Below, in pieces: positions 7,136-21,494 of a stretch of 64,000 bases of DNA. Numbering within the stretch: the stretch's first letter is position 1; each line of letters starts with the position of its first letter. The DNA comes from Nitrospirota bacterium (GTDB lineage Bacteria > Nitrospirota > UBA9217), in assembly GCA_963818475.1 (NCBI GenBank), contig CAWFSF010000002.1, forward strand, positions 416,001 through 480,000. The letters are read 5' to 3'. A program made the translations under genes and the position numbers. A model generated the notes under the pieces. That model was not told where the DNA came from and did not search any database. It worked only from the letters and a program-made list of their open reading frames with translations.

Positions 7136-8269
7136 CTACTTTCTCAAAAACTCCTGCACCTGTTTCTTGATCTCCAGATGATGCACCGGAATATTCGGCA
7201 CATCCTTGTTCCCCGGAACCGTGAGAACATGGATAAAAGTTAATCCCTCACGCTGTCTTTTCATCACGTCGACCAACTCCTGCTCACCCGCAACTTTGAT
7301 CGTATTTCTGAAACCAAATCCCCGCGCAACCTGTTCAAGGTCCACGCAGGACGCAGCGAGCGTGGGTTGGTTTCCTGTTGACCCGTAGGCGCCGTTGTCG
7401 ATGGCGACGATCGTGAGGTTACGGGGATAAACGGAGGCTGCTGTCGCGAGCGTGCCGGGGTTCATGAGCAGGCTGCCGTCGCCGTCGATGACGACCACTT
7501 CTTTCTTTGATGAGAGAGCGATGCCGAGGCCGATGGGCGTTGCCATGCCCATGCTGCCGAGCATGTAGAAGTTCGACGGCTGGTGCTTGATCGCGTACAA
7601 CTCCTTGGACGGCCAGCCGAGATTACTGACAACGACTTTACCGTCAAGGTATGGTGAAATTATTTTGATGATATCATAACGCGTATAGGTTGGTTTCAGT
7701 GCGTCCTGCCGTTTCATGACAGCACTTCCGCATTCCGCATTCCGTATTCCGAATTCGGTTTTCACTGTTCCGCAATCAGAACCTTCCCACACTGCCGGGC
7801 TCATCAGGAATGCATGGACCATGTTCTCATCATACACATCCTTGAGCTTCCGGTCCACCTTGCTGATATCATCGATGCTGTGTATCTCTGTATAGGTGAT
7901 CCCGGCGCTTATGAGCATAGCAGGAAGCCGCCTGCCCATGGGGAACTGGGCTTCGATCTTTTCCTTGTAGATCCCGCGCTGGCTCACGAAGATGGCAAGG
8001 GGCAGTTCAAAGAATTGGGTAAGCGAGAGCAAGGCATTGATCATGTTCCCGATGCCCGAGCTCTGGACGAACATGGCAGGTCTTCTCCCTGCCAGCGCGG
8101 CGCCGGCGCAGATTCCCACGCCCTCTTCCTCCCTCGTCAGCGGAAGATGATGAAAGGACCCGGCAACCAGCTCGAGCAGGGTCTTGATCTTCTCGCAGGG
8201 AAGCGATGCGGTGAGATCCACCCCGTGCTTTTTCAGTATGGCTATGAGCTCTTCTTCAGGTCGTGGCAC
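7136..8269 (-). CDS. comDE: Fused sulfopyruvate decarboxylase alpha/beta (ComDE)
   Basis: ComD half SLPC, TREEEGVGICAGAALAG, QSSGIGNMINALLSL; ComE half NFYMLGSMG, ThDP motif DGDGSLLMN...DNGAYGSTGNQ; adjacent to cysteate synthase. Confidence 0.88.
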   Translation of the reverse strand: MPRPEEELIAILKKHGVDLTASLPCEKIKTLLELVAGSFHHLPLTREEEGVGICAGAALAGRRPAMFVQSSGIGNMINALLSLTQFFELPLAIFVSQRGIYKEKIEAQFPMGRRLPAMLISAGITYTEIHSIDDISKVDRKLKDVYDENMVHAFLMSPAVWEGSDCGTVKTEFGIRNAECGSAVMKRQDALKPTYTRYDIIKIISPYLDGKVVVSNLGWPSKELYAIKHQPSNFYMLGSMGMATPIGLGIALSSKKEVVVIDGDGSLLMNPGTLATAASVYPRNLTIVAIDNGAYGSTGNQPTLAASCVDLEQVARGFGFRNTIKVAGEQELVDVMKRQREGLTFIHVLTVPGNKDVPNIPVHHLEIKKQVQEFLRK

Positions 8270-9501
8270 AGCAGTTCCTCGATATCTTTCTCCGTCGCGC
8301 TCTTCGAGATGAACTTCGGCAGGACCATGTGGGTTCGCTTGACCTCCCGCAGCTTTGCCTCGCCGCCGCCGGTGATGTTCAGGAGAACGGTGTCGCTCTT
8401 CTTGATAGCGCCTTTCCGCACGGCATCTTTGAGCACGGCCACGGCGACACCCGATGCAGGGACAAGGTCGATGCCCTCGGCCGCGAGAAACTCGTCCATT
8501 CCTGCGTATACCGCCTCGTTCTCAACGCCGTACATCCCTCCTCCGGCAGAGGTGAGGAGATCGAATACGCCGCCTTGCACCGAGTAGGCAGGGTAACGGG
8601 TAGAAAGTACGCGCGTGGTGATCTGGCTGATGAGCTCCGGATCCAGGTCTTCGGTGAACAGCGAGCGGCTGCCCTTCTCCCAGGCATGCAGCATCGGCGC
8701 AAAGGGCAGGTTCTGGCCCAGGTGGAACTGCGGCAAGCGCGTGCCGAACCTGCCGTCCCTGATGAACCGCTCGGCCATCTCCCAGCCTCCGATAGCGCCG
8801 GTGCCGCTTCCGACCGCCTGGACATAATGGTCCGGCAGTTTTCCGATCTTCGAGACCGCCTCGAGCATGACGATGCCGAGCCCGTCCCGCTTCGCGATAT
8901 TCTTCACCCCTCCTTCGAAGGGGTAGCCCGTTGCCGAAGCGACGCGCCTCGCGACATCGATGGAATCCGAGTAGTCTCCGTCTCCCACGGCCAGCGTGGG
9001 CACCAAGGACGAGCTTTCCAGGTACCACATCTCCGCCAGACACATCCGCGGCACGACGATGACCACGGGAAAACCCGTTCTTGTCGAAAGGTGTGCGAAG
9101 GCCCGCGCCGTGTTCCCTGCCGAGGCGACGATCAGCCCGTTCACACCGTTCTCCCGGGCGTTCTGAATCACGACAGCAGCTTCGAACTCCTTGAAGGTGC
9201 AGGTTTCGAGCAGCGCCCCCTTCTCGGGCCAGTAACCGTTGAACGCGATGAAGAGCTGCTCGAGACCGAGATGCCTGGCAAGACCCTGGGACCGGTACAC
9301 CAGCGGCCCCGGCTGGACCGACGCGGGCTGATGGACCGGAAGCCAGTTGAACCTCCAGATGCCGTCGGCGCCGCTCTCCCTGAACTGGCGGTCATGATAC
9401 TCTGTCACCAGGAGAGCGTCCTTGCAGTGCTCGCAGAAGGCGCAGTAGGAGTTCTCCAGCGTCTTTCCGCATTTCCTGCATCGTATGGAATAATGGCTCA
9501 T
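8242..9501 (-). CDS. Cysteate synthase (PLP, threonine-synthase-like)
   Basis: N-terminal CxxC..C, FNGYWPEKGA..TCTFKEFEA (PLP Lys), ASAGNTARAF, EGGVKNIAKRDGLG, HYVQAVGSGTG; overlaps comDE start. Confidence 0.85.
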   Translation of the reverse strand: MSHYSIRCRKCGKTLENSYCAFCEHCKDALLVTEYHDRQFRESGADGIWRFNWLPVHQPASVQPGPLVYRSQGLARHLGLEQLFIAFNGYWPEKGALLETCTFKEFEAAVVIQNARENGVNGLIVASAGNTARAFAHLSTRTGFPVVIVVPRMCLAEMWYLESSSLVPTLAVGDGDYSDSIDVARRVASATGYPFEGGVKNIAKRDGLGIVMLEAVSKIGKLPDHYVQAVGSGTGAIGGWEMAERFIRDGRFGTRLPQFHLGQNLPFAPMLHAWEKGSRSLFTEDLDPELISQITTRVLSTRYPAYSVQGGVFDLLTSAGGGMYGVENEAVYAGMDEFLAAEGIDLVPASGVAVAVLKDAVRKGAIKKSDTVLLNITGGGEAKLREVKRTHMVLPKFISKSATEKDIEELLCHDLKKSS

Positions 9502-9530
9502 GATTTTACCCTCTAAAAATAAAACTATCT

Positions 9531-9794
9531 CACCACGGAGTCACGGAGACACGGAGAAAGAGATTGGTTTTAAAAATCTGGTACAGAATGATTCCACGGA
9601 ATTCAAGTTTTATGGTCTCGTAAAAAGTCCTTAGTGCTTTCATCGCGAGGAGCGGAGCGACGCAGCAATCTCGTTTACCAGACACATACGAACTGCGAGA
9701 TTGCTTCGCTACACTCGCAAAGACGGCTGAGCAGACTTATTAAGCAAGCCTCGAACTTGAAGCGTCCTCCTCCGTGTCTCCGTGCCTCCGTGGT
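9531..9794. repeat. CACGGAG-family inverted-repeat element with nested palindromic element (9634-9727)
   Basis: caccacggagtcacggagacacggag ... ctccgtgtctccgtgcctccgtggt; inner gcgagg..gcaatctcg / cgagattgcttcgct..ctcgc. Confidence 0.85.
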
Positions 9795-11017
9795 AAATTC
9801 GTTTTTTTGCTTTCCTCTACCAACCCGCTCACCAGCTCCATGATGTCGGTGATCTTGATCTGTTTGTCGTGCCCCTGCATGGCCTCGTTCACCTTGGCAT
9901 AACACGCAGGACAGCTCAAGATCAGCCGGTCGGCCTTCTTTGCCACTGCCTCATCGATCGTTTGTCTGCCCATCTTGATGGCATTCTCGTGGTACACCTT
10001 GCGCGCCGCGCCGCCCGAGCCGCAGCAGCGCGAGTTCAGGCCGTGGCGCTCAAACTCGATGACCTTAACGCCCGGAATGCTCCGGAGAACGTCACGCGGT
10101 TCTTCGATGACGCCGACTCCCCGGGAAAGATAACAGGGGTCGTGATAGATCACCGTCTCGCGAAGTTCTTTCGTGATGCGCAGCGTTCCCGCCTTGACCG
10201 CGCCCGCAACGAACTGGGTGATATGCCGGATCGCAAAAGGAAGCTCTTTCCCATAGAACGCGGGCCAGTCCCTGCTCATGATGTTCACGCAGCAGGGACA
10301 GGAGCAGACCAGCGTTTTTACGCCCCTCGCCTCGTATCCCGCCACCAGCCTCTTGACCAGGTCTTCGAGCAGATCGTGCTGGCCGGTGATGAAGAGCGGG
10401 AAACCGCAGCACACCTCTTCCTCCGGCGGCAGCATGGTGAAGGGCGCTCCGATCGCATTCAGGACGAGCACGTCGCCGCGCACCATCGTCTGCGCTTCGT
10501 ACGCGCCCGTGCATCCTGCATAGTAGGCAACATCGGCGCGCTCGGCGACCCTCACGTTCCCGGGGAACCAGGGTTTGTATCGTTCTGCCGCCGGCTTTTC
10601 GTAGGGGTTGCCGCTTTTCGTAATGGCCTGCGGCAGGTTCGCCTGGACGCCGATCGGGCCGAGGCCGCGTTTTACCATTTCCTTCCGGAGCATGGGCCAG
10701 AGCCGCTGCGTGAAGATGCCGACAGGGCAGTTCTTCCCGCAGGCGCCGCAGGTAGTGCACTCGTACACGGCCTTGGTAAAGTCCTCGAGAAGCCTGGGGT
10801 CAACCGCTCCCGCGCCGAAAAGCTTCGCCTTGAGGCCGTCCGTGGACCGGATGAACTCCCGGAACATGCGGATCTTCTCGGGCGGAGAGACCGCTGCGTT
10901 TCCCGTCACGTCCTGGACCGGGCAGTGCTTGAGGCACTCGCCGCATTGGGTGCAGGCATCGATCTCCAGGACCTGCTTCGGTGAAAGCTCTTCCGTGAAT
11001 GAACGTTTATTTTTCAT
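9740..11017 (-). CDS. HdrD/GlcF-like iron-sulfur protein (2x[4Fe-4S] plus two CCG domains)
   Basis: CTQCGECLKHCP, CTTCGACGKNCP, CCG..CSCPCC, YHDPC..CCG..SCPAC. Confidence 0.9.
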   Translation of the reverse strand: MKNKRSFTEELSPKQVLEIDACTQCGECLKHCPVQDVTGNAAVSPPEKIRMFREFIRSTDGLKAKLFGAGAVDPRLLEDFTKAVYECTTCGACGKNCPVGIFTQRLWPMLRKEMVKRGLGPIGVQANLPQAITKSGNPYEKPAAERYKPWFPGNVRVAERADVAYYAGCTGAYEAQTMVRGDVLVLNAIGAPFTMLPPEEEVCCGFPLFITGQHDLLEDLVKRLVAGYEARGVKTLVCSCPCCVNIMSRDWPAFYGKELPFAIRHITQFVAGAVKAGTLRITKELRETVIYHDPCYLSRGVGVIEEPRDVLRSIPGVKVIEFERHGLNSRCCGSGGAARKVYHENAIKMGRQTIDEAVAKKADRLILSCPACYAKVNEAMQGHDKQIKITDIMELVSGLVEESKKTNLPRRHGDTEEDASSSRLA

Positions 11018-11693
11018 GCATCACCAAGGGAAGCGCCAGTTCCCGTTTCTCCGCTTCAAGCATCACCAGCGGAGCGGTCAGAATATGGGTTGGAAGAAAA
11101 GGGATCAGGACCAGAACCAGGGAAAAATGCAGCAGGAACAGGATGCTGCCCGGTACTGCAGCCGGCGAGAAGCACAGTATCCCTTGGATGAACAATTTCA
11201 CCATCACGATATCGGCCCTGAAAACGGTGTTCATCAGAAGGCCGAGTGAACTGATCACGAGCAAAAGGACCAGAAGGAACATATTGGCAGGCGAGGAATA
11301 TTTTTCCTGGACGGAGAACCGCCGGATGACAAGGATATAGACCAGTGACAGAGGAAGGACGTAGCCGGCGATCAGTCCGGGGACCTGGACCCACCATACC
11401 CACTCCGGGACGGTGTGGAGAAAATACTTCAGATGCCGCAGGACAACGAGCAGGAACGAAACATGGAAGACCCACTCGCCGAACCACAGCGCGGGGTTGA
11501 CCATTAAAAGCCTCCAGAAGAAGACCACGTCCCGTACCGATAACGCACATGCCTTCGCCGACAACGGCGGCGCCGTCCCCGCGATCGCAGCGGGACGCGC
11601 CACCGCCTTCCACCAGAGCAGTGCATGCAGAAAGAACCGTATGCAGAACGCCGCATACACGCCGTACGCGGCAACGATCAACAACGTACCCAT
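11007..11693 (-). CDS. NarI/HdrE-like cytochrome b membrane subunit
   Basis: About 5 TM helices, His pairs WVFH..LRH and LLH..PTH; overlaps the HdrD-like gene. Confidence 0.8.
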   Translation of the reverse strand: MGTLLIVAAYGVYAAFCIRFFLHALLWWKAVARPAAIAGTAPPLSAKACALSVRDVVFFWRLLMVNPALWFGEWVFHVSFLLVVLRHLKYFLHTVPEWVWWVQVPGLIAGYVLPLSLVYILVIRRFSVQEKYSSPANMFLLVLLLVISSLGLLMNTVFRADIVMVKLFIQGILCFSPAAVPGSILFLLHFSLVLVLIPFLPTHILTAPLVMLEAEKRELALPLVMHEK

Positions 11694-11771
11694 AGGCGTC
11701 CTTTCACAAGGAGATAGTATGAGTATAACTCACCGTCCTCGTGTGAGATAGGGGGACAGCAGCCGGCGACC

Positions 11772-12089
11772 TCATTTCTCCCGGACGAATTCGATCCGCA
11801 CGTCCTTCGGCACGTTCATGCCCGCTTCCGTCTCGATGGCCTTCAGGATGGCGGAAGGCACCGGGCAGGCGACGTGCTTGAGATGCTTCGCCGCGGACAG
11901 GTAGATCGGGTTGTCGCGGAAACCTGTGAGCGTCACCCGCTGGTCCACGGTCGCGATATCCGCAAGCATCTTCTGCACCATCTCGCAGGCCGTGTCCAGG
12001 GAGATTGCGATCTTCTTATCCTTCCCTTTCTCCGCCGTGATGGTGACGGTGAACCCGCATGCGCCTGAATTGACGATGACTTTGGTCAT
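11772..12089 (-). CDS. Small Cys-containing conserved protein (GxCG...C...HxxCPVP; DUF6951-like)
   Basis: MTKVIVNSGACGF...TACE...HVACPVP; SD GGAG before ATG 12089. Confidence 0.75.
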   Translation of the reverse strand: MTKVIVNSGACGFTVTITAEKGKDKKIAISLDTACEMVQKMLADIATVDQRVTLTGFRDNPIYLSAAKHLKHVACPVPSAILKAIETEAGMNVPKDVRIEFVREK

Positions 12090-12125
12090 TGTTGCTCCGT
12101 CCGAAAAAAACAACATCAAGGATCC

Positions 12126-12220
12126 TTTGACACTGATCAAGGCCGATTAACCTATGATAGGGGCAGATATCAGTGAATCATGCCTTTTTTCATAAATAAT
12201 CCGCCTTTATCAGTGTCAAA
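12126..12220. repeat. TTTGACACTGAT-family inverted-repeat element
   Basis: tttgacactgat ... atcagtgtcaaa; second copy at 55441-55537. Confidence 0.7.
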
Positions 12221-12254: not shown

Positions 12255-14231
12255 TCATCCTTTGATCTCCACCGTAGCCCCTTGCTTTACGAGCAGCTCC
12301 TTCAGGTTCGGGAACTTGTCCTTCATGTGCGGGATGTGCATGGCCTGCATGAACTCCTTCTCGAAGGCCGGGTCCGTGGCGATCTCGACGAATTCGACCC
12401 AGCGGGCCCGTTCGTTCGCTTCCCGCCGCTTGTCCCGGTTCAGGAGCGCTATGCGCGAACCGTCGCCGGCAGCGTTGCCCACGGCGTAGACCATGTCGAT
12501 GGGGCAGTCCGGGAACATGCCGAGCGTGAGCGAAGCCACTTTGTCGATGTGGCTCCCGAAGGCGCCTGCCAGTATCACGCGGTCGAGCTTGGTGATGCCG
12601 AGCCGCTTCATCATCAGTTTTGCGCCTGCATAGAGCGCTCCTTTGGCTAGCTGGAGCGCGCGCACGTCGCCCTGGGTGATGGTGATGTCGTGGCCGATGG
12701 ATGTCTCCGCAGCCCAGGCAAGCACGTACTCCGGTTTACCGTCCACGTCCTTCCGTACTCGATTGGTGCCGAGGTCCAGGACGAACCTGCCGCTTTTATC
12801 AATGATGCCGGCCTTGAACATTTCGGCCACCACGCCGATGATGCCGGAGCCGCAGAGGCCCTTGGCATTCACCTTTTCGATATGCGTGTGCCAGTCCGCC
12901 TTGCCGATGACCTTGTACCGGGGCTCCTTCGTGGCGGGGTCGATCTCGACGGTCTCGATGGCGCCCGGTGCTGCGCGCATGCCGAACTTGATCTGGGCGC
13001 CTTCGAAGGCCGGGCCGGTTGCGCAGGACGTGGAGCAGACCTTGTTCCGGTTGCCCATGAGCAGCTCGCCGTTCGTGCCGATGTCGATGATCAGGACCAT
13101 CTCGTCCTGGTTGTAGGGTTCTTCCGCGATCAGCACGCCCACGTTGTCGGCGCCCACGAAGCCCGCTTCGATCGGCAGCACGTGAATGTAGGAACCTGGA
13201 TTGATCCGGAGGCCCAGGTCGCGCGCCTTGATATCGAGCGAGTTCTGGACCGCAGGGATGAAGGGCGACCGGCCGATGTATTCGGGGTTCAGGCCCAGGA
13301 AGATGTGGTGCATGGCCGTATTGAATACGATCGTCAGGTCGTCGATCATGAACCCGGGGTTCAAGTCGTCCTTTTTTATGTCCACGGAAACGCGCTCGAT
13401 GATCTCGTTCAGGCCCTGGATGATCGCCTTCTGCATGGTGTCCAGGCCGCCCGGATTGCTCATGGCAAAGGTGATGCGCGACATCACGTCCTCGCCGTAG
13501 GGCACCTGGGGGTTCATCATGGATTCGGTGTTCACGACCTTGCCCGTGCTCAGGTCCGTCAAATAGCCCACGCAGGTCGTCGTGCCGACGTCCACGGCAA
13601 GGCCGTAGCTCGCCTCGACAAAGCCCGGCTCCACCTTGATGATCTCCCTGTCCATCCAGACCGTGACCGTTGCCTTCCACGCGTCCTTTCTGAGAACGTC
13701 CTGGAGGTCTTTGAGCACCAGGTAATCGAACGTAAGCCCTGTAAGCTTGTAGTTGTCCTCAAGGTATTTCAGCACCCGTTCCCAGTCGCCCGTGGTCATA
13801 TCGTGGAGTGACGGTTGTGCGAGTTCGACATTGTACTTCTTTACCGCCGGGTCGAGCTTGATCGTGAGCTCTTTCGCTGCCTTCCTGACGACCTGTTTGC
13901 CCGCGCGCGAACGTTCGGGTACGAAGACCTTGACGTCGCCGTGGATCTCGGCCGTACACGACAGCCTGATGCCCGGCCCGTCCTCGGGCTTGATGTGCTT
14001 TTTCTCCGCTTCGGAGAGCGGGGAGAGATGGGCCATGCCCGATTCGATATTGTCCTTTTCGAAATAGCCTTCTTCGATCCTGACCTTGCACTTGCCGCAG
14101 ACCTTTTTGTTTCCGCAGAGCGCTTCGATGTCAACACCCAGGGACTGGGCCGCTTCAAGGATGGTCTTGCCGTCCTCTACTTCGCCGCGGCTGCCCGAGG
14201 GCTGGAATATCACTTTGTGTTTCTTGAGCAT
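12255..14231 (-). CDS. ASKHA-type ATP-dependent reductive activator of corrinoid proteins (RACo/COG3894)
   Basis: N-terminal [2Fe-2S] CGNKKVCGKC..RLSC; DVGTTT, DIGTNGE, CATGPAFEG, GLCGSG, LAGAFG, GNAA. Confidence 0.93.
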   Translation of the reverse strand: MLKKHKVIFQPSGSRGEVEDGKTILEAAQSLGVDIEALCGNKKVCGKCKVRIEEGYFEKDNIESGMAHLSPLSEAEKKHIKPEDGPGIRLSCTAEIHGDVKVFVPERSRAGKQVVRKAAKELTIKLDPAVKKYNVELAQPSLHDMTTGDWERVLKYLEDNYKLTGLTFDYLVLKDLQDVLRKDAWKATVTVWMDREIIKVEPGFVEASYGLAVDVGTTTCVGYLTDLSTGKVVNTESMMNPQVPYGEDVMSRITFAMSNPGGLDTMQKAIIQGLNEIIERVSVDIKKDDLNPGFMIDDLTIVFNTAMHHIFLGLNPEYIGRSPFIPAVQNSLDIKARDLGLRINPGSYIHVLPIEAGFVGADNVGVLIAEEPYNQDEMVLIIDIGTNGELLMGNRNKVCSTSCATGPAFEGAQIKFGMRAAPGAIETVEIDPATKEPRYKVIGKADWHTHIEKVNAKGLCGSGIIGVVAEMFKAGIIDKSGRFVLDLGTNRVRKDVDGKPEYVLAWAAETSIGHDITITQGDVRALQLAKGALYAGAKLMMKRLGITKLDRVILAGAFGSHIDKVASLTLGMFPDCPIDMVYAVGNAAGDGSRIALLNRDKRREANERARWVEFVEIATDPAFEKEFMQAMHIPHMKDKFPNLKELLVKQGATVEIKG

Positions 14232-14401: not shown

Positions 14402-15040
14402 TTATCCTGCAATCGTTTCTTTCCTCCCATACGGACAAATATTGATACACAGCCCGCAGTTGGGCTTGCCGTCAGTTGCCCGCTTGGTCGATTTGTGGCT
14501 TCTGCAGTCGCTGAGCTTCACCAGTTCAACAAAAGGCGAGGACCGGGACCATTCCCGACCCGTGATCGCATGCGAAGGACAGTAGGTCATGCAGAGCGTG
14601 CAATCGCCGCACAAGCTGTGTTCCATGGGCGCATCCGGCCGGAAACGGGCATCGGTCAGGACCGTGACAAGCGACAGGCGCGGACCGTGGTCGATGTTGA
14701 TAAGAAGCCCGTTCTTCCCGATCCAGCCCAACCCGGCGGACGTGGCCGCCATCTTGTGATTGAACAGGGAGTAGAGCTTCGAGATGCACGTGCCCTTCCT
14801 GCGGTCCGAGTCCGGCGGGATGGCAAGGGTGCGATGCCCCCGGGCCTTCAGGAACCGGACCGCCCGCTTCTCAAGCTTCGCGAGCAGGCTGAGGGTGTCT
14901 TCATTCAGCCTCCGGTCCACACCGATGGACACCGCCCGGGCCAGATGGGCGATCTCGCCGCTCAGGTACCCGTCGAGGCCTGCGAACCCCACGACCGTTG
15001 CGCCGTGGTCCAGCAGTTCTTTCCTGAGCGAGGTCTTCAT
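14402..15040 (-). CDS. QueG/reductive-dehalogenase-like 2x[4Fe-4S] protein
   Basis: HKMAATSAGLGWIGKNGLL..GPRLSLVTVLTD, CGDCTLCMTYCP, CGLCINICP. Confidence 0.8.
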   Translation of the reverse strand: MKTSLRKELLDHGATVVGFAGLDGYLSGEIAHLARAVSIGVDRRLNEDTLSLLAKLEKRAVRFLKARGHRTLAIPPDSDRRKGTCISKLYSLFNHKMAATSAGLGWIGKNGLLINIDHGPRLSLVTVLTDARFRPDAPMEHSLCGDCTLCMTYCPSHAITGREWSRSSPFVELVKLSDCRSHKSTKRATDGKPNCGLCINICPYGRKETIAG

Positions 15041-15729
15041 TTCGCTTTCTTGGCTTCCACCTCATCCTTCATCTTTTTGAGCGACTCGATCATGTTGATG
15101 GCGTCCTTCAACGCGTTGGTCGCGTCCTTGGCGTAGCCGTCGGCGCCGTACTTGTCAGCCACGTCCTGGGACACCGGGGCGCCGCCGATCATGATCTTGA
15201 CATGCGGGTTCTTGGCCCGGAGATCGTCGATGACCTTCTTCATGCCGGTCATGGTCGTGGTCATCATGGCCGAAAGGCAGACGAGGTCGGAATCGGTCCG
15301 GAGCTGCTCGGCGACGAATTTGTCCAGCGGCACATCCCGGCCCAGATCGTAGACCGTGAAGCCGGCCACGTCGAACATCATCTTCACGATGTTCTTGCCG
15401 ATATCGTGCACGTCGCCTTCCACGGTCCCGATAACGACCGATCCCTTCACGCCCAGGTCCAGCTGCTTCACGTGGGGCTTCAGGATGTCCAGGCCCGCGT
15501 AGAGCGCGTCTGCGCACATGAGCAGCTCGGGCACGAAGTACTCCTGCGCCTCGAACATCTTTCCCACTTCCACCATGCCGGAGACGAGTCCGTTGAAGAT
15601 GGCGTCGTTCGCTTCCATGCCCACGTCCAGCGCCTCCTGCGACGCTTCCTTGGACGTGTCTTCGTCGTACTGGATCACCGCGTTCCGCAGTTTTGCCAGG
15701 AGCTCTTTCTTTTTTTCTTCCGTAACCAT
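15037..15729 (-). CDS. Corrinoid (B12-binding) protein, MtaC/MtbC family
   Basis: B12 cap YFVPELLM; DVHDIGKN..SAMMTTT..IGGAP motif. Confidence 0.95.
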   Translation of the reverse strand: MVTEEKKKELLAKLRNAVIQYDEDTSKEASQEALDVGMEANDAIFNGLVSGMVEVGKMFEAQEYFVPELLMCADALYAGLDILKPHVKQLDLGVKGSVVIGTVEGDVHDIGKNIVKMMFDVAGFTVYDLGRDVPLDKFVAEQLRTDSDLVCLSAMMTTTMTGMKKVIDDLRAKNPHVKIMIGGAPVSQDVADKYGADGYAKDATNALKDAINMIESLKKMKDEVEAKKAK

Positions 15730-15733: not shown

Positions 15734-16753
15734 TCACCTCCGGTAATTTTTAACTTCGTCCATCATGGCCTTCATGTTCTCCGGCGGCACCGTGGGCCAG
15801 ATATCGCAGCCGGGCCAGACCGCGCTCACGCCGTCGTCCATGCACTTCCTGATGGTCTGACGCACCAGGTCCGGCGTACCGGCCACCAGCACGTTGTAGG
15901 GATCGTAGTTCCCGAAGACCAGCGCTTTGGGGCCGAGCTTCTTGCGCGTTTCGGCAACATCGTTCTTCTGGTCCACGCTGATCGCCTTGGCGCCGCTTTC
16001 GGCCATGAACGGAACGATATCGTTCGTCTTGCCGCAGATATGGATCACGCTCGGCACGGAGAGGTTCTCGAAGATCTTCTTGAGGTACGGCAGGATGAGG
16101 CTCTTGAAAACCCGCGGGGAAAGCACGTCCGACGTCGCCCCCATCTCGCGCACCGTGATGAAGTCCACGCCTGCCTTCTCGTACTCCTTCGCCACCTGGA
16201 TGATCACGTCCGCCATCTGGTCGAGCAGTTTCCCGATCTTGTCCGGCTTTTTAAAGGACAGCTTCAGCAGGTCGTTCAGCTCCATGATCTGGCCGGCCAG
16301 CGTGAACGGCCCGAGCACGTAGGAACCGACGGCTGCTTCAGCGCCGATGTCCTTTTTGAGCAGTTTGATGACCTCGACCATGAGCGGCACCCTGCCGCGC
16401 CCGGTAAGGCCCGTGGGGAGCGCAATGTCGAGCTCCGCCTCGTTGTGGATCAGCTTTTTCTTGATCGTGGGGTACAGCAGGTCCTCGGAATGGGCATACA
16501 CGTTGATCTCGCAGCCCATTGCCTCGGCCTCGATGCAGAGGTCGAAGGGCGCCACGCCGCATTCGAAACCGAAGAGCTTGTAGGTCGACGCAGCTGCCGC
16601 TGCCATCATCTTCGCGTCAAGATGAGTAGCCGCGAAATTCTGGCCGAGCGCTTTGAGGCCCTCGGTCGTTACATTGCCCATGCCGCTGAAGCAGGGAGGT
16701 CGGTCGACCTCCTCGCCTGCAAACAGCTTCAGTACTCGTTCTCGTGAATTCAT
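15734..16753 (-). CDS. MtaA/CmuA-family methylcobamide:thiol methyltransferase (URO-D fold)
   Basis: PFDLCIEAEAMGC, Zn ligands HICG and PGC; probable start MNSRERV after SD GGAGG. Confidence 0.85.
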   Translation of the reverse strand: MNSRERVLKLFAGEEVDRPPCFSGMGNVTTEGLKALGQNFAATHLDAKMMAAAAASTYKLFGFECGVAPFDLCIEAEAMGCEINVYAHSEDLLYPTIKKKLIHNEAELDIALPTGLTGRGRVPLMVEVIKLLKKDIGAEAAVGSYVLGPFTLAGQIMELNDLLKLSFKKPDKIGKLLDQMADVIIQVAKEYEKAGVDFITVREMGATSDVLSPRVFKSLILPYLKKIFENLSVPSVIHICGKTNDIVPFMAESGAKAISVDQKNDVAETRKKLGPKALVFGNYDPYNVLVAGTPDLVRQTIRKCMDDGVSAVWPGCDIWPTVPPENMKAMMDEVKNYRR

Positions 16754-16808
16754 TATTATGGAACCTCCTTGAAATACAGTATCGGAATCAAATGGACCTA
16801 AAGCTATT

Positions 16809-16939
16809 ACCACGGAGACACGGAGGCACGGAGAAAGGCAATTAACTTTATGCAAGAACAGAAAATAATTTTCTGAGATTCTTAAAGCAAAATACGTGTT
16901 GGCCTTAACGTCTTCTCCGTGTCTCCGTGCCTCCGTGGT
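16809..16939. repeat. CACGGAG-family inverted-repeat element
   Basis: accacggagacacggaggcacggag / ctccgtgtctccgtgcctccgtggt. Confidence 0.85.
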
Positions 16940-16948
16940 GAAAAGGCT

Positions 16949-17896
16949 CTATTTTCTCGCTGCTCCTGCCGTTAACTTTCCTAAAAATTCGTTAAAGTAC
17001 TTCTTAATAGGAATATTCTCGTTGGCCGAGATCGTTTGTGTTTCATCGTAGACCAGGGTCGAGAGCAGGATCTGCGCTGCAGCCACGGCCGGGAAGATGC
17101 GCGGCGCCGTAACGATGGGGCCATAAAAATTAAAGTCGCTCCAGATCGCAGAGGACATTCCCTGCACCACGGCGTCCATGGCCTTGAACCCGTCCAGGCT
17201 CCAGATGGTCTTCGCTTCTTTCCACATGTGCGTGCCGTTCGAGTAGGCGCCGCCGCAGGGAAGGCCAAGCTTCTCCTTGATGAGCCTGTTGGCGACGAGC
17301 GAGAACGACGTCGCGGGCAGGTTCATGACCGAGGTGTCGACGATGACGGTCTCGAAATCCCCGGCGCCCTGGTCGAGCAGCTTTTCGAGCGATTTCAGCC
17401 GCCCCGCCGGCGTCTGGTCCTGGTCGTCGAAGGCCTGGACCACCACGTGTTTGATCCCCAGGTCCTTGAGCTTCTGTACCTGCCCCTTGATGTCCTTGTC
17501 CCAGGGCGTGATGCTGTTGTACAGGAACTTGTCCTGCAGACCCAGCTTGGCCACGTACTCGGTTGCCTCTGCCCGCTTCTCGGCGACCCACATGTCGATG
17601 CCGAAGGGCATCGTGGTAGTCTCGCGATAGAAATCGACATAGATCTTCGCTTCTTCCGCAGAGTTCGCCACCATGGCCACCATGGACGGAATGCCGGTGG
17701 AGAGCGAGAGCTGTTCCTGCGTTTTGATCAGCTCCGTCGCCTTCACACGGTCGAAGTTGCCTTTCCGGTCAGTCACGATCCGGTCCTTGTTATGGAACAT
17801 GGACGCGATCAAGAGAGGCGGGTTCTCCCCTGCCTGGCCGCCGACCTTGATCCCGTTGATGTTGAAAATCTTCTGTTCGCGGCTGAATCGAAACAT
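16949..17896 (-). CDS. MtrH/MtgA-like pterin:corrinoid methyltransferase
   Basis: N-terminus MFRFSREQKIFNINGIKVGGQAGENP resembles the MtrH family; LYNSI, IVDT, GLPCG, YGP. Confidence 0.85.
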   Translation of the reverse strand: MFRFSREQKIFNINGIKVGGQAGENPPLLIASMFHNKDRIVTDRKGNFDRVKATELIKTQEQLSLSTGIPSMVAMVANSAEEAKIYVDFYRETTTMPFGIDMWVAEKRAEATEYVAKLGLQDKFLYNSITPWDKDIKGQVQKLKDLGIKHVVVQAFDDQDQTPAGRLKSLEKLLDQGAGDFETVIVDTSVMNLPATSFSLVANRLIKEKLGLPCGGAYSNGTHMWKEAKTIWSLDGFKAMDAVVQGMSSAIWSDFNFYGPIVTAPRIFPAVAAAQILLSTLVYDETQTISANENIPIKKYFNEFLGKLTAGAARK

Positions 17897-17956
17897 CGTT
17901 GTCCTCTTTTCTTGTCTCTATCTGGTGGAACCGCTGGAATGTCTAAATCTATATCC

Positions 17957-18169
17957 ACCACGGAGGCACGGAGTCACGGAGAAATGCTGGCTTTAAACTT
18001 TCACGGCTGTCATTGCGAGGAGCGTTTTATGCGACGCGGCAATCTCGAACTTGTTGTTTTGTTGAACTACGAGATTGCTTCGCTTCGCTCGCAAAGACGG
18101 CTAAAGGGCTTTTCAACAACCTGCTGGATCTGCAGTCCGTGATTTTGCTCTCCTCCGTGTCTCCGTGGT
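17957..18169. repeat. CACGGAG-family element with nested GTCATTGCGAG element (18009-18098)
   Basis: Outer arms as in other copies; inner gtcattgcgagg..gcaatctcg / cgagattgcttcgcttcgctcgcaaagac. Confidence 0.85.
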
Positions 18170-18207
18170 TAATAAGGTTTTTATGTACTGTATAAAAGTA
18201 TGATTTC

Positions 18208-18240
18208 AAAAGGCGGGGGAGCCTTCGAAACGCTCCCCCA
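18208..18240 (-). terminator. Probable intrinsic terminator/attenuator inside the operon
   Basis: Minus strand GGGGGAGC-loop-GCTCCCCC then GCCTTTT, just after the CMD-family gene. Confidence 0.55.
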
Positions 18241-18249
18241 TGATGATCG

Positions 18250-18696
18250 TTAAAACACGCCGTGGTCGAACTTCGGCGCCGGGAGATACTCCCACTTCTC
18301 GCCTTTCCTGAACTTGGTTTCTATGTCGAGGCACTTTAAGGCGTACTCGAAAGCATAGGGAATGCCGGGACCGCCCGGCACAAAGCCGCCGAGGATCATG
18401 CCTACCGACGCCGCCTCGAAGATCTCCATCGTGGTCGCGCCGGCATTGATCGCCGGGATCACGTGGATGATGCACCGGGGCGAGCAGTAGGCAACGCCGC
18501 CCGACATGAACATCAACTCCTTCACCTTGCGGGAAAGCGCCCCGTCTGCGAAAATGCTCGCATAGAAATCTGCGAAAGTCCTTCCCGGTTCGGGTGTCAC
18601 GGTGTTGATGACCTGGAACATGCGCGGTACGAACCCGCACTGCTGCTTCATGTAATCGTTACATTCTTCCGTCGTCATCTTTTTCTTGTCAGCCAT
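18250..18696 (-). CDS. Carboxymuconolactone decarboxylase/AhpD-family protein
   Basis: GALSRKVKEL, CSPRCIIH, AGAT..EIFEA; SD AGGAGG. Confidence 0.85.
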   Translation of the reverse strand: MADKKKMTTEECNDYMKQQCGFVPRMFQVINTVTPEPGRTFADFYASIFADGALSRKVKELMFMSGGVAYCSPRCIIHVIPAINAGATTMEIFEAASVGMILGGFVPGGPGIPYAFEYALKCLDIETKFRKGEKWEYLPAPKFDHGVF

Positions 18697-18826
18697 TTGT
18701 GTTTCCCTCCTCTTGCCCTGGCGCTGTCTGCGCCCGGGAAACTTGGTTTTTCAACGCCTCACGTACCTTCGTGCAACATACTTCAAATTCAGTCTGAAAC
18801 GCCTTCACCTCTCTCTCATCTGAAAG

Positions 18827-18877
18827 TCCCCCTCACCTTTATCCTCTCCCCCGAGGGGAGAGGGTAGGGTGAGGGGT
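18827..18877. repeat. CCCCTCACC...GGTGAGGGG cruciform repeat
   Basis: cccctcacctttatcctctcccccgaggggagagggtagggtgagggg. Confidence 0.7.
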
Positions 18878-18922
18878 TTCGTTCTACTCCTAGTTGTACA
18901 GATTTTCAGCATGCATGTTTCT

Positions 18923-19957
18923 CTAATATTTCCATTCATGCGCCACCTGGATGAACTTCTGGATGTTCTCGTACGGAACGGTCGGGGGTATGTCGCAGCC
19001 CGGCATCAGCACGAACCCGCCGTCGATGCCGGCGGCCTTGATGATGTCCGTACAAGCGTTCTCCACGTCCTGGACCGTGCCGTTCAGCATGATCTTAACG
19101 GGGTCCACGTTCCCGCCGAAGCACATCTTGCCGTGAAGCGCCTCTTTGGCCTTCGCAATGTCCGTCTTGTGGTCCAGGCTGATGCAGCTGGCGCCGGTCA
19201 GCGGGAACAGGTCCAGCCGGTCCGTGGTGTTCCCGCAGATATGGACCAGCGTATGGACGCCCTTTGACTTTGCCCAGTCCGTGAACTTTTTGAGTGCGGG
19301 CACGGCGAACTTCTCGAACTGTTTCTTGGAAATGAGGTCGCCCGAAGCAGTAGGGTCTGCGAGGCTGATGACCTCGAGGGTCTTGTCCGCAACGATCGGC
19401 TCGTAGAGATGGATCAGAATATCGGTTGCGAAGTCGACCACCTTCTCGACAAAGGCCGGTTTCTTGAACGTGGCCTTCATCATCGCCTCTTCGCCCACGA
19501 GCCGCGCGCCGAGGGTGAAGGGTCCCCAGGCCGTCATGGTCACCACGTAATTATTGCCGATCTTCGCCTTGGTCTGGCGCAGGGCCTTAATGACGGTCGT
19601 GATCACCTCGTCCTTGTCGAGGTCGCTCAGCTTGAGCCTCGCAAGGTCCTCCTCGGATGAGACGAAATGGTTCTCCAGGTCCGGCGCACCCACCTCCCGC
19701 CACTTGATCTTTCCGCCCAAGGCCGTCGCATGAAAGTTGTTGTAGCCCGAGCCCGGGTAAACAATATCGCACTTCAGCGTCTCGCTCATGGCGACCAGCA
19801 TGTCGGTCATCTTGTTCGCGTCCTTTGACAGGGCCTCGAACGACGTCCCGTGCCGCTTGATGCTCCACATGCCCGCGCCGAACAGGGTCACCGGGAGCCG
19901 GTCGGGTTTTCCTCCTTCGTAAGCTTTCAGGATCACTTCCTTCGGTGTCATCATGAA
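18923..19957 (-). CDS. Second MtaA/CmuA-family (URO-D fold) methyltransferase
   Basis: GPFTL, ADPTASGDLIS, Zn ligands HICG and PGCD. Confidence 0.85.
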   Translation of the reverse strand, partial: FMMTPKEVILKAYEGGKPDRLPVTLFGAGMWSIKRHGTSFEALSKDANKMTDMLVAMSETLKCDIVYPGSGYNNFHATALGGKIKWREVGAPDLENHFVSSEEDLARLKLSDLDKDEVITTVIKALRQTKAKIGNNYVVTMTAWGPFTLGARLVGEEAMMKATFKKPAFVEKVVDFATDILIHLYEPIVADKTLEVISLADPTASGDLISKKQFEKFAVPALKKFTDWAKSKGVHTLVHICGNTTDRLDLFPLTGASCISLDHKTDIAKAKEALHGKMCFGGNVDPVKIMLNGTVQDVENACTDIIKAAGIDGGFVLMPGCDIPPTVPYENIQKFIQVAHEWKY

Positions 19958-19989
19958 CATCTCCCTTCGTACCAAGTGGAATCACACCA

Positions 19990-20319
19990 TCAAGACGCGA
20001 TGCTGTGGATCGTTCTTTTGAACTCTTCAAGGTCCAGCGGCGCCCCCATGCCGCCGGCACGGTCCTGCTCCCATTCGCCTCCCATGATCAAGATGGGCAT
20101 GCCGGGCGAGACAGACCTGATGACCTGCGCTGCCTCCTCGGCAGACATGCCGAAAGGCTCGGAATCCACGATGACGAAACCGTAAAGCGCTTGGAGGACC
20201 TTCTTCACCGCAAGCGCCGGATGCTCCACGGTTTCGACAGTGTACCCCTCGTCCCGCAGGACCCCATAGAGGTTCTTGATCAGCAGGGGATTGGAAGAGC
20301 AGAGAAGAATGTTCTTCAT
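19990..20319 (-). CDS. Stand-alone atypical receiver (CheY-like) domain protein
   Basis: NILLCSS..EGYTVETV..VIVD..PILIMGG..PLDLEEF; acidic pocket and Lys degenerate. Confidence 0.7.
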   Translation of the reverse strand: MKNILLCSSNPLLIKNLYGVLRDEGYTVETVEHPALAVKKVLQALYGFVIVDSEPFGMSAEEAAQVIRSVSPGMPILIMGGEWEQDRAGGMGAPLDLEEFKRTIHSIAS

Positions 20320-20333
20320 AACAAGGGATAGTT

Positions 20334-20349
20334 TGCAATAGCTGTGCCA
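20334..20349 (-). promoter_or_regulatory. sigma54 (-24/-12) promoter
   Basis: Minus strand TGGCAC-AGCTA-TTGCA, consensus match, directly upstream of the first operon gene. Confidence 0.85.
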
Positions 20350-20553
20350 GTGATTCCAGCCGGATCAGACACAGTACTTTCGTCGCAGCGTGTTAAGCGG
20401 CAGTGATGCCCTCTCTGACAATCGCAGCATGGCTGTACTGAAATACTCCGGGAAATACGATATACGTCATTAGAAGATCAGTTCAACAGGGAGCGATAGA
20501 AACAACGCGGACTAAAATTGGAGGTTGAGGTAATCACTAGCGGGAAAATAGCA

Positions 20554-20584
20554 GAATAATGCCCCACCCTGCGGGGCATTATTC
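20554..20584. promoter_or_regulatory. Perfect 12-bp inverted repeat: candidate activator UAS and/or metF terminator
   Basis: gaataatgcccc-accctgc-ggggcattattc about 210 bp upstream of the sigma54 site. Confidence 0.5.
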
Positions 20585-20603
20585 CCCAAACTGTGGAGGC
20601 GGA

Positions 20604-21494
20604 TCACGCGGCATTCGGTGTCTTCGTTATTTCCTTGCCGAGGGTTGCCAGGATATCTATCATCGAGTCAGCGCGATTCATGGTGTAAAAGTGAAAGTAG
20701 TTCACGCCGTGCCTCATCAGATCCTCGACCTGTTTCACGGCGAACTCCACGCCGAGTTTCCTCATGTCCTCGGGCAGATCGCTCACGGGCTCCATTCGGT
20801 CCAGGATCTCCTTCGGGATGGTGGCGCTGCAGACCCCGGCAAACTCCTTGATCCGTTTGCAGTCCACGATCGGCATGATGCCGGGTATGATGGGGATGGT
20901 GATGCCGGCACTGGCGGCCCGGTCCCGGAACCGGTAGAAATAGCGATTATCGAAGAACATCTGGGTGATCGCGAAGTCCGCGCCCTGGTCGATCTTCTGC
21001 TTCGTATATTCCAGGTCCTTCTCGACGTTCGGCGACTGCGGATGCCCTTCGGGATAGACCGCCACGGCAAGAGAAAAACGGCCGGTTTTCGCTAGAAAAT
21101 CGACGAGGTCCCGGGCGAACAGGAAGTCGCCCTTCGATGCATCGAACCCGGACAGGGCCTTCGGCGGGTCGCCGCGCAGGGCGAGGATGTTGTCGATCCC
21201 GCTTGCTTTGAACTCCTCCACGATGGCGCCGATGGATTCCTTCGTCGCGCCGATGCAGGTGAGGTGGGACATGAGGGTGAGTCCGCTGTCCTCACGAAGC
21301 CACCGCAGGGCATTCAGGGTCCTTTCCTGTGTTGTTCCACCCGCCCCATAGGTCACGGACACATAGAGCGGATCGAAGACCTTTAAGTCCGCCACGACCG
21401 TGAGGAATGCGGGCTTCCCCTCGGCATTCTTCGGCGGAAAGACTTCAAAAGCGATCCCCCGCTTTTGCGTTTTAAGGACATCCTTTATCTTCAT
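20604..21494 (-). CDS. metF: Methylenetetrahydrofolate reductase
   Basis: FEVFPPK, SVTYGAGG, HLTC, LALRGDPP, YPEGH, ITQMFFD, HFYTMN. Confidence 0.95.
   Translation of the reverse strand: MKIKDVLKTQKRGIAFEVFPPKNAEGKPAFLTVVADLKVFDPLYVSVTYGAGGTTQERTLNALRWLREDSGLTLMSHLTCIGATKESIGAIVEEFKASGIDNILALRGDPPKALSGFDASKGDFLFARDLVDFLAKTGRFSLAVAVYPEGHPQSPNVEKDLEYTKQKIDQGADFAITQMFFDNRYFYRFRDRAASAGITIPIIPGIMPIVDCKRIKEFAGVCSATIPKEILDRMEPVSDLPEDMRKLGVEFAVKQVEDLMRHGVNYFHFYTMNRADSMIDILATLGKEITKTPNAA

Follow-up and report, generated by a model that had tools for sequence, protein, structure and literature searches.

Cysteate synthase and ComDE genes in a conserved Nitrospirota cluster with corrinoid methyltransferases and an HdrED-like pair

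Coenzyme M (CoM) is usually seen as characteristic of methanogens and of archaea that oxidise alkanes; the one bacterial exception is aerobic and makes it by another pathway. Here, a gene cluster is described from a 64,000 nucleotide stretch of DNA of a Nitrospirota bacterium (assembly GCA_963818475.1, contig CAWFSF010000002.1, positions 416,001 to 480,000; referred to as the window), in which genes of archaeal CoM synthesis are joined to corrinoid methyltransferases of the thiol type, a pterin methyltransferase of the MtrH type and a pair resembling HdrDE. Every protein family in this cluster is known, but the combination is not.

Several described systems share parts of it. MtgABC of Desulfitobacterium is a bacterial corrinoid system dependent on tetrahydrofolate (THF), with an MT2 of the MtrH family, and we know of no CoM or Hdr genes in systems of this type. 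In Methanosarcina, the genes for cysteate synthase (MA3297), ComDE (MA3298) and MMP16/ComF (MA3299) of the type-2 CoM pathway are adjacent (PMC12068725). The CoM route of Xanthobacter autotrophicus Py2 begins with ComA and serves aerobic alkene/epoxide metabolism (PMC9457059), while type 1 mlp clusters have been proposed to act in methyl-sulfur/methyl-selenium metabolism (PMC10418091). In PMC13730134, comE is used only as a marker of methanogenesis. No paper linking Nitrospirota to cysteate synthase, ComDE or CoM biosynthesis as a bacterial trait was found in the full-text literature, supplements and subscription papers aside.

Composition of the cluster and comparison with described systems

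The cluster forms a block of 13 co-oriented genes on the minus strand (window 7136-20319) behind a sigma-54 promoter. Gene identities were assigned using Pfam and NCBIfam profiles against curated cut-offs. Together with the open reading frames (ORFs), these profiles returned all 14 genes named in an original prediction made from the sequence alone, each at its coordinates, on the minus strand and in the given order; the sigma-54 promoter placed before the receiver gene is likewise present by sequence. Our preferred reading, held tentatively and at slightly less than even confidence, is that the cell makes a CoM-like thiol-sulfonate, which serves a methyl-thiol/corrinoid/methyl-THF system tied to the quinone pool. 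The features are, in the order of transcription (scores and cut-offs in brackets):

20604..21494, minus: MetF, methylene-THF reductase, upstream of the block (TIGR00676 323.7, cut-off 293.7)
20349-20334, minus: sigma-54 promoter TGGCAC-N5-TTGCA (sequence read, perfect match)
19990..20319, minus: single-domain receiver (CheY-like), first operon gene (PF00072 25.2 bits, below the cut-off of 30.2)
18923..19975, minus: MtaA-like 1 (MtaA1), divergent zinc thiol/selenol methyltransferase of the URO-D fold (PF01208 205.7)
18250..18696, minus: AhpD/CMD-like protein with a CxxxCxxH motif (PF02627 27.1 bits)
16949..17896, minus: MtrH-family methyl-pterin:corrinoid methyltransferase (PF02007 176.7; NF002142 325.6, cut-off 287)
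15734..16753 (listed ORF to 16855), minus: MtaA-like 2 (MtaA2), zinc thiol methyltransferase of the URO-D fold (NF004889 275.3, cut-off 244; TIGR01463 253.7, cut-off 235.4)
15037..15729, minus: corrinoid protein of the MtaC/MtbC/MtgC type, DxHxxG, His-on (Pfam B12-binding and B12-binding_2)
14402..15040, minus: mini QueG/RdhA-fold protein, 212 amino acids (aa), two [4Fe-4S] motifs (QueG 61.6, below 200; RDH 44.5, below 160)
12255..14231, minus: RACo-type ATP-dependent reductive activator of the corrinoid protein (Pfam RACo_C_ter, Raco_middle, RACo_linker, Fer2)
11772..12089, minus: DUF6951, Cys3-His protein of 105 aa (PF22263 104.9 bits)
11007..11693, minus: HdrE/DsrM/NarI-like membrane cytochrome b subunit (weak DsrM match, 53.5 bits, below 300)
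9740..11017, minus: HdrD/DsrK/TfrB-like iron-sulfur protein, two [4Fe-4S] motifs and two CCG domains (Pfam CCG twice, Fer4_8)
8242..9501, minus: cysteate synthase, pyridoxal phosphate-dependent, phosphoserine and sulfite to cysteate (TIGR03844 459.9, cut-off 324.9)
7136..8269, minus: fused sulfopyruvate decarboxylase ComDE, thiamine diphosphate-dependent, last operon gene (TIGR03846 232.6, cut-off 221.5; TIGR03845 184.4, cut-off 147.95)

MetF had been counted as a member of the block. Among the loci seen, however, it adjoins the cluster only in the window and three relatives (L129, L144, L157), and a terminator-like hairpin with a 15-bp stem follows the gene at 20585-20553. Because this hairpin ends metF, MetF is predicted to be a neighbour in its own transcription unit, outside the conserved cluster. 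Two further labels were sharpened: the "QueG-like FeS" protein is a whole mini protein of the QueG/RdhA fold, and the "small Cys protein" is DUF6951.

The genes from the receiver to DUF6951 are referred to as module A and the four genes HdrE-HdrD-cysteate synthase-ComDE as module B. Module A would comprise one MtaC-type corrinoid protein kept active by RACo, three methyltransferases and three accessory proteins, with the MtrH-like protein on the methyl-THF side, MtaA2 and MtaA1 on the thiol or selenol side, and the AhpD-like, mini QueG/RdhA-fold iron-sulfur and IscU-like DUF6951 proteins as accessories.

The best PDB match of both MtaA-like proteins is MtaA (4ay7; E 1e-24 for MtaA1, E 7e-46 for MtaA2), and their zinc-site residues align to its HICG and PGCGI motifs. 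The residues are invariant among orthologues, namely H245, C247 and C327 of MtaA1 in 40 of 40, and H272, C274 and C350 of MtaA2 in 64 of 64; both proteins thus retain the thiol-type H-x-C...C zinc site that had been predicted. In this superfamily, His-Cys-Cys marks S-methyltransferases, whereas O-demethylases replace the Cys ligands (Kountz & Balskus, PMC10418091). Since the His-Cys-Cys ligands are invariant, the MtaA-like proteins are not of the O-demethylase MT1 type, a likeness that the original prediction had raised against itself. MtaA1 scored below both MtaA/CmuA subfamily cut-offs (192.9 against 235.4). MtaA2 most likely starts near position 16753, i.e., at approximately residue 35 of the listed ORF, because its relatives align from residues 28-35.

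The corrinoid protein scored slightly below the TIGR02370 cut-off (208.2 against 215.3), with 185 bits for the MtgC and 118 bits for the metH model. Its His108 (DxHxxG) is kept in 72 of 72 orthologues, and it is the only MtaC-type protein found in the host genome by tblastn. The MtrH-like protein misses the MtgA equivalog (155 against 550), and RACo reaches 473 bits with the AcsV model (cut-off 800). In the AhpD-like protein, C75 and H78 are kept in 59 of 59 and C71 in 53 of 59 orthologues, and weak matches were found to the AhpD domains of the ArsM_AhpD_UU and MduS selenoprotein families.

The start of the mini QueG-like gene overlaps the stop of the corrinoid protein gene. Its product keeps the HKxAAxxAGLGWIGKNGL motif and eight Cys, and a structural model (pLDDT 80) matched QueG in Foldseek (5d6s; E 8e-10, TMq 0.67), followed by PceA/NpRdhA and, weakly, MMACHC. 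With 212 aa compared to 367-384 aa in the chains of the matched structures, the protein is, judging by this model, a minimal member of the B12/iron-sulfur reductase fold. In DUF6951, C11, C35, H72 and C75 are invariant (31/31). All Foldseek matches of its AlphaFold model (pLDDT 93) are IscU, SufE, CsdE or SufU (best E 0.018, prob 0.99), and a VIA search ranked IscU first with a middling Z of 6.5. We take a role as IscU/SufE-like sulfur or metal carrier as a lead suggested by the fold, rather than as a finding. No fused forms of DUF6951 were found among longer proteins, which is weak evidence.

The HdrE-like gene overlaps the start of the HdrD-like gene, and its orthologues match Pfam Nitrate_red_gam. 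The protein has several hydrophobic segments, and all 71 orthologues retain His77, His87, His189 and His203, as would be expected for two b haems; the scores do not separate HdrE from DsrM/NarI orthology. Of 66 orthologues of the HdrD-like protein, 65-66 retain all eight ferredoxin Cys and the two CCG motifs, and the best NCBIfam models of the window protein, TfrB (189.8) and DsrK (88, cut-off 400), are both sub-cut-off. A dihaem-b membrane protein with a cytoplasmic CCG protein in a Dsr-bearing host is reminiscent of DsrMK. The pair could be a DsrMK-type module whose substrate is not a CoM disulfide but sulfur bound to a protein such as DUF6951 or the AhpD-like protein (as persulfide or trisulfide), the cluster being a sulfur-trafficking or respiratory variant with the sulfonate as a by-product. 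Consistent with this, DsrM is the best NCBIfam match of the membrane subunit, HdrD also matches DsrK, and DUF6951 combines an IscU/SufE-like fold with Cys3His. Nevertheless, all such matches are far below the equivalog cut-offs (53.5 against 300 and 88 against 400), and in 72 of 73 loci the partner of the pair is cysteate synthase rather than dsr genes. Moreover, where HdrED is missing, DUF6951 is still part of module A, and the corrinoid methyltransferases and ComDE would be left unexplained; we consider this explanation highly unlikely. In our preferred reading, the dihaem-b/CCG pair would instead couple a thiol/disulfide (or persulfide) couple to menaquinone.

The cysteate synthase matches a solved cysteate synthase (9k3c, E 4e-89, residues 3-398) and is single copy in the genome. 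ComDE contains Pfam TPP_enzyme_N/C, and the phosphonopyruvate decarboxylase model stays sub-cut-off (212.8 against 312.5).

Compared to the described systems, the Nitrospirota cluster shares with Methanosarcina the URO-D zinc methyltransferases with His-Cys-Cys, a DxHxxG corrinoid protein, an ATP-dependent activase, a two-CCG HdrD with a dihaem-b subunit, and adjacent genes for cysteate synthase and a fused ComDE. It differs in its occurrence in a bacterium where methyl-CoM reductase (MCR), MMP16/ComF and DUF39 were not found, in its activase, which is a bacterial RACo instead of RamA, and in its pterin link, a soluble MtrH homolog instead of the Mtr complex. Furthermore, its MtaA-like proteins fall outside the MtaA/MtbA clades, and HdrED takes the place of MMP16 beside cysteate synthase-ComDE. 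Relative to Xanthobacter autotrophicus Py2, it would be the second bacterial case of CoM; here, ComA was not found, the genes are those of the archaeal phosphoserine route, and the organism is an anaerobe.

With the type 1 mlp clusters as described in PMC10418091, it has in common at least two His-Cys-Cys MtaA-like proteins, a corrinoid protein, a RACE-type activase, the occurrence in non-methanogenic anaerobes and, in the Nitrospirota host as well, selenium utilisation genes. In contrast to these clusters, which lack a THF methyltransferase, the Nitrospirota cluster adds MtrH, HdrED, cysteate synthase and ComDE in strongly conserved synteny. The text of PMC10418091 makes no mention of cysteate, MtrH, type 2 or any term beginning with Nitrospir. 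The likeness to MtgABC lies in the MtrH-family methylcorrinoid:THF methyltransferase, the MtgC-like corrinoid protein and RACo, but the substrate-side enzymes are thiol-type URO-D proteins and not members of the MttB family.

Conservation and co-occurrence of the two modules

Related loci were taken as the best 80 of 444 relatives of the cysteate synthase among GTDB species genomes, and the window proteins were mapped to them by tblastn. Co-linearity was assessed on the 48 loci whose flank upstream of cysteate synthase measures 9.5 kb or more. MtrH, MtaA2, the corrinoid protein, the QueG-like protein, RACo, DUF6951 and HdrD are co-linear in 42 of them; four miss one gene at the thresholds used (L057 HdrD, L079 the QueG-like protein, L080 DUF6951, L117 MtrH), and two (L113, L118) contain cysteate synthase-ComDE alone. 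The gene immediately preceding cysteate synthase is that for HdrD in 72 of the 73 loci that extend far enough, and ComDE follows in each of the 75 loci with sufficient flank. The receiver gene precedes MtaA1 in relatives, too. Such an arrangement is conserved far beyond chance.

The phylum was surveyed using an even sample of 401 genomes (cysteate synthase at E<=1e-60, MtaA2 orthologue at E<=1e-40); the sampled genomes are related, hence the counts are not independent. Cysteate synthase was detected in 70 genomes (67 over cut-off), including 36 of 63 in the family of the window, and the MtaA2 orthologue in 75. Both genes occur together in 68 genomes and are both missing in 324. Cysteate synthase without MtaA2 was seen twice, in genomes that are 65 and 68% complete. 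Among the seven genomes with MtaA2 only, the contig edge lies inside the cluster in two (L128, L129), cysteate synthase is fragmented in one (L131), one is 74% complete, and three belong to one genus. In three genomes with an unlinked cysteate synthase-ComDE pair, the methyltransferase module is present elsewhere in the same genome, once with HdrED and once with MetF upstream. Thus, the synteny of cysteate synthase/ComDE with the methyltransferase genes, which had been made a touchstone for the proposed function, extends across the relatives, and the genes co-occur even when unlinked. Linkage, together with co-occurrence in the absence of linkage, is strong evidence that modules A and B work together.

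Proposed product, substrates and direction of methyl transfer

In our preferred reading, module B would supply the committed steps of CoM synthesis by the type-2 route of methanogens. Phosphoserine and sulfite would be converted to cysteate, a housekeeping transamination would follow, and sulfopyruvate would be decarboxylated to sulfoacetaldehyde, which a non-ComF enzyme would reductively thiolate to CoM or a very close thiol-sulfonate. MtaA2 would methylate or demethylate this thiol via the corrinoid protein and MtrH would couple the same corrinoid to methyl-THF, i.e., the logic of methionine synthase in separate pieces, while MtaA1 would bring in or remove the methyl group of a second small methyl-sulfur or methyl-selenium compound. 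The net flow would then lead from an external methyl-sulfur or methyl-selenium compound to the corrinoid, and via methyl-CoM as a charged intracellular carrier to methyl-THF, to be oxidised through MetF, FolD and Wood-Ljungdahl reactions at the expense of sulfite or sulfate. From the interpretation given in the original prediction, the gene identities, the bacterial host, the lack of Mcr, the zinc site and the synteny hold, and the MetF membership does not. The data show the gene identities, cofactor ligands, synteny, co-occurrence and a fusion, whereas CoM as product, methyl-CoM, all substrates, the direction of flow and the role of HdrED are parts that we infer.

P0002 (662 aa), the closest relative of MtaA2 among the representatives listed, is a natural fusion of MtrH and MtaA2, the MtrH domain in its N-terminal half being 48% identical to the window MtrH and its URO-D domain 58% identical to MtaA2. 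Such a Rosetta-stone link argues for MtrH and MtaA2 sharing one corrinoid protein, with a pterin and a thiol side as in methionine synthase. MetH has the same chemical logic with pterin, B12, zinc-thiol and reactivation modules. In the Nitrospirota cluster, however, the proteins are separate, the pterin and thiol modules have unrelated folds, reactivation relies on ATP and RACo rather than on S-adenosylmethionine, and the patchy accessory distribution (75/401 genomes) is unlike that of a housekeeping enzyme. Fusions of URO-D and corrinoid domains of the MtsD/F/H kind were also observed (P0031, P0033, P0034, P0044, P0053, P0070, P0077, P0083).

Concerning the direction, a catabolic flow is the most likely, although it is the weakest part of the reading. 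It is favoured because of a chemoreceptor, FolD and MetF near the cluster, the inducible control and the Dsr/Wood-Ljungdahl background of the host; of 80 loci, 11 have FolD between DUF6951 and HdrE, and seven have an MCP chemoreceptor in this position. The reverse would be an exergonic, methionine-synthase-like flow, in which Wood-Ljungdahl methyl-THF passes its methyl group through MtrH and the corrinoid protein to MtaA2/MtaA1 and on to thiols (CoM, sulfide, selenide, metalloid thiolates). Methyl-CoM, methanethiol or methyl-selenides would then be a methyl sink or detoxification product, and HdrED would keep the thiol pool in redox contact with the quinones. The mimicry of the MetH pterin and thiol modules by the MtrH-MtaA2 fusion fits this direction, as do the thermodynamics, which favour thiol methylation, the presence of acsB and MetF in the genome, and the relationship of the AhpD-like protein to domains fused to arsenite methyltransferases. 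On the other hand, the chemoreceptor and the inducible sigma-54/two-component control suit an external compound better, methyl-CoM would have no known sink in the absence of MCR, and a benefit of such a flow is not evident. We judge this direction to be decidedly unlikely.

The preferred reading, i.e., a CoM-like thiol methylated and demethylated through the corrinoid protein, has to be weighed against the energetics, the placement of the MtaA-like proteins, the missing steps of the CoM pathway and a genus without module B, all of which count against it. Moving a methyl group from a thioether to a pterin costs approximately 30 kJ/mol (methyl-CoM/tetrahydromethanopterin), which weakens the catabolic direction, and the reduction of an alkyl disulfide by menaquinol is unfavourable by its potentials. 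MtaA2 exceeds the cut-offs of the subfamily models NF004889 and TIGR01463 but stays below those of the MtaA (249 against 400) and MtbA (191 against 600) equivalogs, and MtaA1 reaches none of these cut-offs.

For phylogenetic placement, a library search with MtaA2 gave 4249 representatives at E<=0.001, 150 of which were listed. A quick FastTree analysis with SH-like support was run on 118 rows, consisting of 111 of the 150 listed representatives of near-full length and seven sequences of our own choice; by NCBIfam, three rows pass the MtaA equivalog, two are slightly below it, and one passes MtbA. MtaA2 falls into a separate clade of 29 rows (support 98), sister to MtaA/MtbA, which also holds the paralog from a second cluster of some relatives. 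MtaA1 is found in a more distant clade of 14 rows together with the HemE outgroup. Neither protein thus falls inside the MtaA/MtbA clades. Homology would indicate a thiol or selenol methyltransferase without fixing CoM as the substrate.

The second cluster is conserved in some relatives (L152-L155, e.g., L152:6274-19865) and absent from the genome of the window. It encodes a PAS kinase, a LuxR regulator, the MtaA2 paralog (~52% identical), a CobW GTPase, a 151-aa ORF and a CbbQ/NorQ AAA protein, and further a 921-aa ORF without Pfam match, DUF2284, a distant URO-D protein, a corrinoid protein and RACo. In this composition, it resembles published type 1 mlp clusters.

The remaining genes of the CoM and Mcr pathways were searched in the host genome, which is 91% complete. 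MMP16/ComF did not exceed the cut-off, the best match being a ferredoxin stretch with 28 bits (cut-off 364), so that the comF search suggested earlier leaves the last step of CoM synthesis without a known enzyme. PF01837/DUF39 gave no match, and ComA was not found. There was no match to McrA (PF02249) either, in agreement with the initial description of the cluster as lacking Mcr. Among the 70 cysteate-synthase-bearing genomes of the 401 sampled, none has an MMP16/COG1900-type match at E<=1e-20. Ten sampled genomes do have such a match, nine of one family (f3) and one with full MMP16 on a small contig; two of the nine belong to the genus carrying module A without cysteate synthase. The full match (G076:C157:3105-4268, 503 bits) is the only full one for MMP16/ComF in the 401 genomes, and, as its genome has 78% completeness and 5% contamination, it may stem from a methanogen and have been binned there in error.

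As HdrED sits where Methanosarcina has MMP16, a non-orthologous, quinol-driven reductive thiolation by HdrE-HdrD is an attractive idea, drawn by analogy. It would be part of the most far-reaching form of the preferred reading: genuine CoM would be made via the archaeal phosphoserine route in anaerobic Nitrospirota, HdrE-HdrD, possibly with DUF6951 as sulfur carrier, would replace ComF, and a methyl-CoM/corrinoid/methyl-THF cycle would run without methyl-CoM reductase. In this full form, the proposal is doubtful.

Finally, one genus with three sampled genomes (81-97% complete) carries REC-MtaA1-CMD-MtrH-MtaA2-CorP-QueG-like-RACo-DUF6951 without HdrED, cysteate synthase, ComDE and ComA, and no ComDE-type match over cut-off was found anywhere in these three genomes. 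Module A is therefore not strictly dependent on module B and can exist without this thiol made in the cell. This raises the explanation that module A alone is the functional unit, and that module B, sharing no more than its regulation, yields a sulfoacetaldehyde derivative which is never methylated, e.g., isethionate or taurine as osmolyte, a product that disposes of sulfite, or a thiol with a purely redox role. The lack of a detected ComF-type enzyme and the position of both MtaA-like proteins outside the MtaA/MtbA clades are in line with it, and so is the mlp-like second cluster of some relatives with its MtaA paralog 52% identical to MtaA2. In vitro, ClMlp2 methylates selenide and, more slowly, sulfide (PMC10418091), the SelD of the host has in-frame TGA codons, and the AhpD-like protein resembles domains of methyltransferase selenoproteins. 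However, MtaA2 is present in 68 of the 70 cysteate-synthase-bearing genomes, with no complete one lacking it, and the co-occurrence persists when the modules are unlinked. In addition, three methyltransferases per corrinoid protein exceed the need of a two-step demethylase, and neither a sulfoacetaldehyde reductase nor an aminotransferase gene was seen in the cluster using Pfam and NCBIfam. On balance, we regard this explanation as rather unlikely, and retain a CoM-like thiol as the tentative link between both modules.

Host, regulators and significance

The host genome (4.66 Mb, 7 contigs) contains a complete dcw cluster (mraW to ftsZ) at 38-56.6 kb of the window, which, together with the Nitrospirota relatives, agrees with the bacterial host assumed from the beginning. 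Loci related to the cluster come from genomes of Nitrospirota/Nitrospirae, Thermodesulfovibrionia, Thermodesulfovibrio and Candidatus Sulfobium; L104, L106 and L119 stand for its occurrence in enrichments of the Ca. Sulfobium type. Both dsrA and acsB/cdhC are present in the host, each read in several frames, and the proposed search for Wood-Ljungdahl genes was thus positive with acsB. The host is an anaerobic Nitrospirota bacterium of the Thermodesulfovibrionia type, bearing Dsr and Wood-Ljungdahl genes. Two- or three-frame readings were encountered for the sensor kinase (window 33128-34628), dsrA and acsB/cdhC (G000:C6:2059359-2060509; G000:C2:359300-359769). The assembly probably carries indel errors, and apparent frameshifts would therefore be no evidence of pseudogenes. 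The selD gene (G000:C6:2120103-2120939) holds two in-frame TGA codons, at least one of which probably encodes selenocysteine, pointing to selenium use by the host.

The only URO-D genes of the host genome are hemE and the two MtaA-like genes of the cluster. According to tblastn, the cluster genes are single-copy except for paralogs of RACo and HdrD and a 24% identical relative of cysteate synthase, which, given a weak TIGR03844 match at its position, appears to be threonine-synthase-like.

In related genomes, orthologous clusters are directly preceded by a sigma-54 activator gene, and a kinase and an NtrC-type protein orthologous to such regulators are encoded in the window:

31471..32805, minus: NtrC-type sigma-54 activator, REC-AAA-HTH_8 (Pfam; 60% identical to the L126 regulator upstream of the cluster)
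33128..34628, minus: GAF-PAS-HisKA-HATPase sensor kinase in two frames due to an assembly frameshift (Pfam for both pieces; 57-61% identical to the L126 kinase)
35245..36201, plus: SsuA-like protein without room for a signal peptide (NMT1_2 61 bits; TIGR01728 SsuA_fam 91.3, below 163.5, aligned from residue 15)

The SsuA-like gene is divergent from the sensor kinase gene, and its product is a candidate sulfonate sensor, loosely associated with the cluster. SsuA-like proteins without room for a signal peptide (76-91 bits, sub-cut-off) are found near ComDE in 10 of 80 loci, and some orthologues also lie beside kinase/NtrC genes (L055 among those 10; L134, L142 and L144 elsewhere). In L143, L157 and L117, module A contains or adjoins genes for an ABC transporter, the binding protein of which exceeds the cut-off of the aliphatic-sulfonate SsuA model (194.2 against 163.5). 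Judged by the sequences, these variable neighbours, including FolD and the chemoreceptor, point to an inducible system which responds to or imports a sulfonate, to chemotaxis toward its substrate and to a C1 flow through THF.

In the window, the regulators are parted from the operon by MetF, copies of an insertion sequence (26535-27815, 27961-29241; fragment 22396-23593) and a stretch of low GC content. This stretch (22396-31400; 0.46-0.50 compared to ~0.58 around it) contains two HTH-transposase ORFs of 426 aa that are nearly identical (26535-27815, 27961-29241) and a fragment of an rve integrase (22396-23184) with an HTH piece (23132-23593). A DsbC-like thioredoxin (23866-24642) and a protein resembling 2'-5' RNA ligase are also encoded there. 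The stretch has the look of a mobile element inserted between the activator and the operon which it controls in relatives.

At its other end, the operon is predicted to terminate at ComDE, as the next conserved gene is convergent. The latter (6457-7062, plus) encodes 201 aa without family match, with a low-complexity middle and a helix-rich C-terminal end, and has 36 tblastn hits among the related loci. Same-strand ORFs past ComDE (6691-7134, 6423-6983) were rejected as operon members because they are shadows of this gene. The cluster is flanked by genes for a pyridine nucleotide-disulfide oxidoreductase (4278-5513, plus), DJ-1/PfpI (5670-6260, plus) and an OsmC-like protein (21699-22289, plus). 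These three are of the thiol/peroxide-stress type and rarely adjoin the cluster in relatives (1-4 tblastn hits).

An Rfam search of 6500-22500 revealed no riboswitch or known RNA, only weak matches to miRNA models. Those resembling plant/animal miRNA precursors reflect a long inverted repeat or hairpin (16784-16964) between MtrH and MtaA2. A G/C-rich nested inverted repeat (REP-like) is located at ~18830-18890 on the minus strand within the 226 nt that separate MtaA1 from the AhpD-like gene; further gaps in the operon measure 165-350 nt. A scan for sigma-70 promoters was uninformative, with six promoter-like sites compared to 4.5 expected.

The cluster is present in about a fifth of the sampled Nitrospirota genomes (75/401). 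If our reading is true, CoM-dependent methyl transfer would extend to anaerobic bacteria of groundwater, sediments and wetlands, and matches to comDE and cysteate synthase in metagenomes could not be taken as markers of methanogens. It would further indicate an unknown CoM synthase and provide a testable gene set for the long-unclear turnover of methanethiol and dimethyl sulfide by sulfate reducers, and the orphan "mlp" methyltransferase clusters would gain a possible methyl acceptor. In case genuine CoM is made, C1 metabolism dependent on CoM would be met for the first time in Bacteria, and sulfate reducers could use it to compete for methylated sulfur compounds or to produce them.

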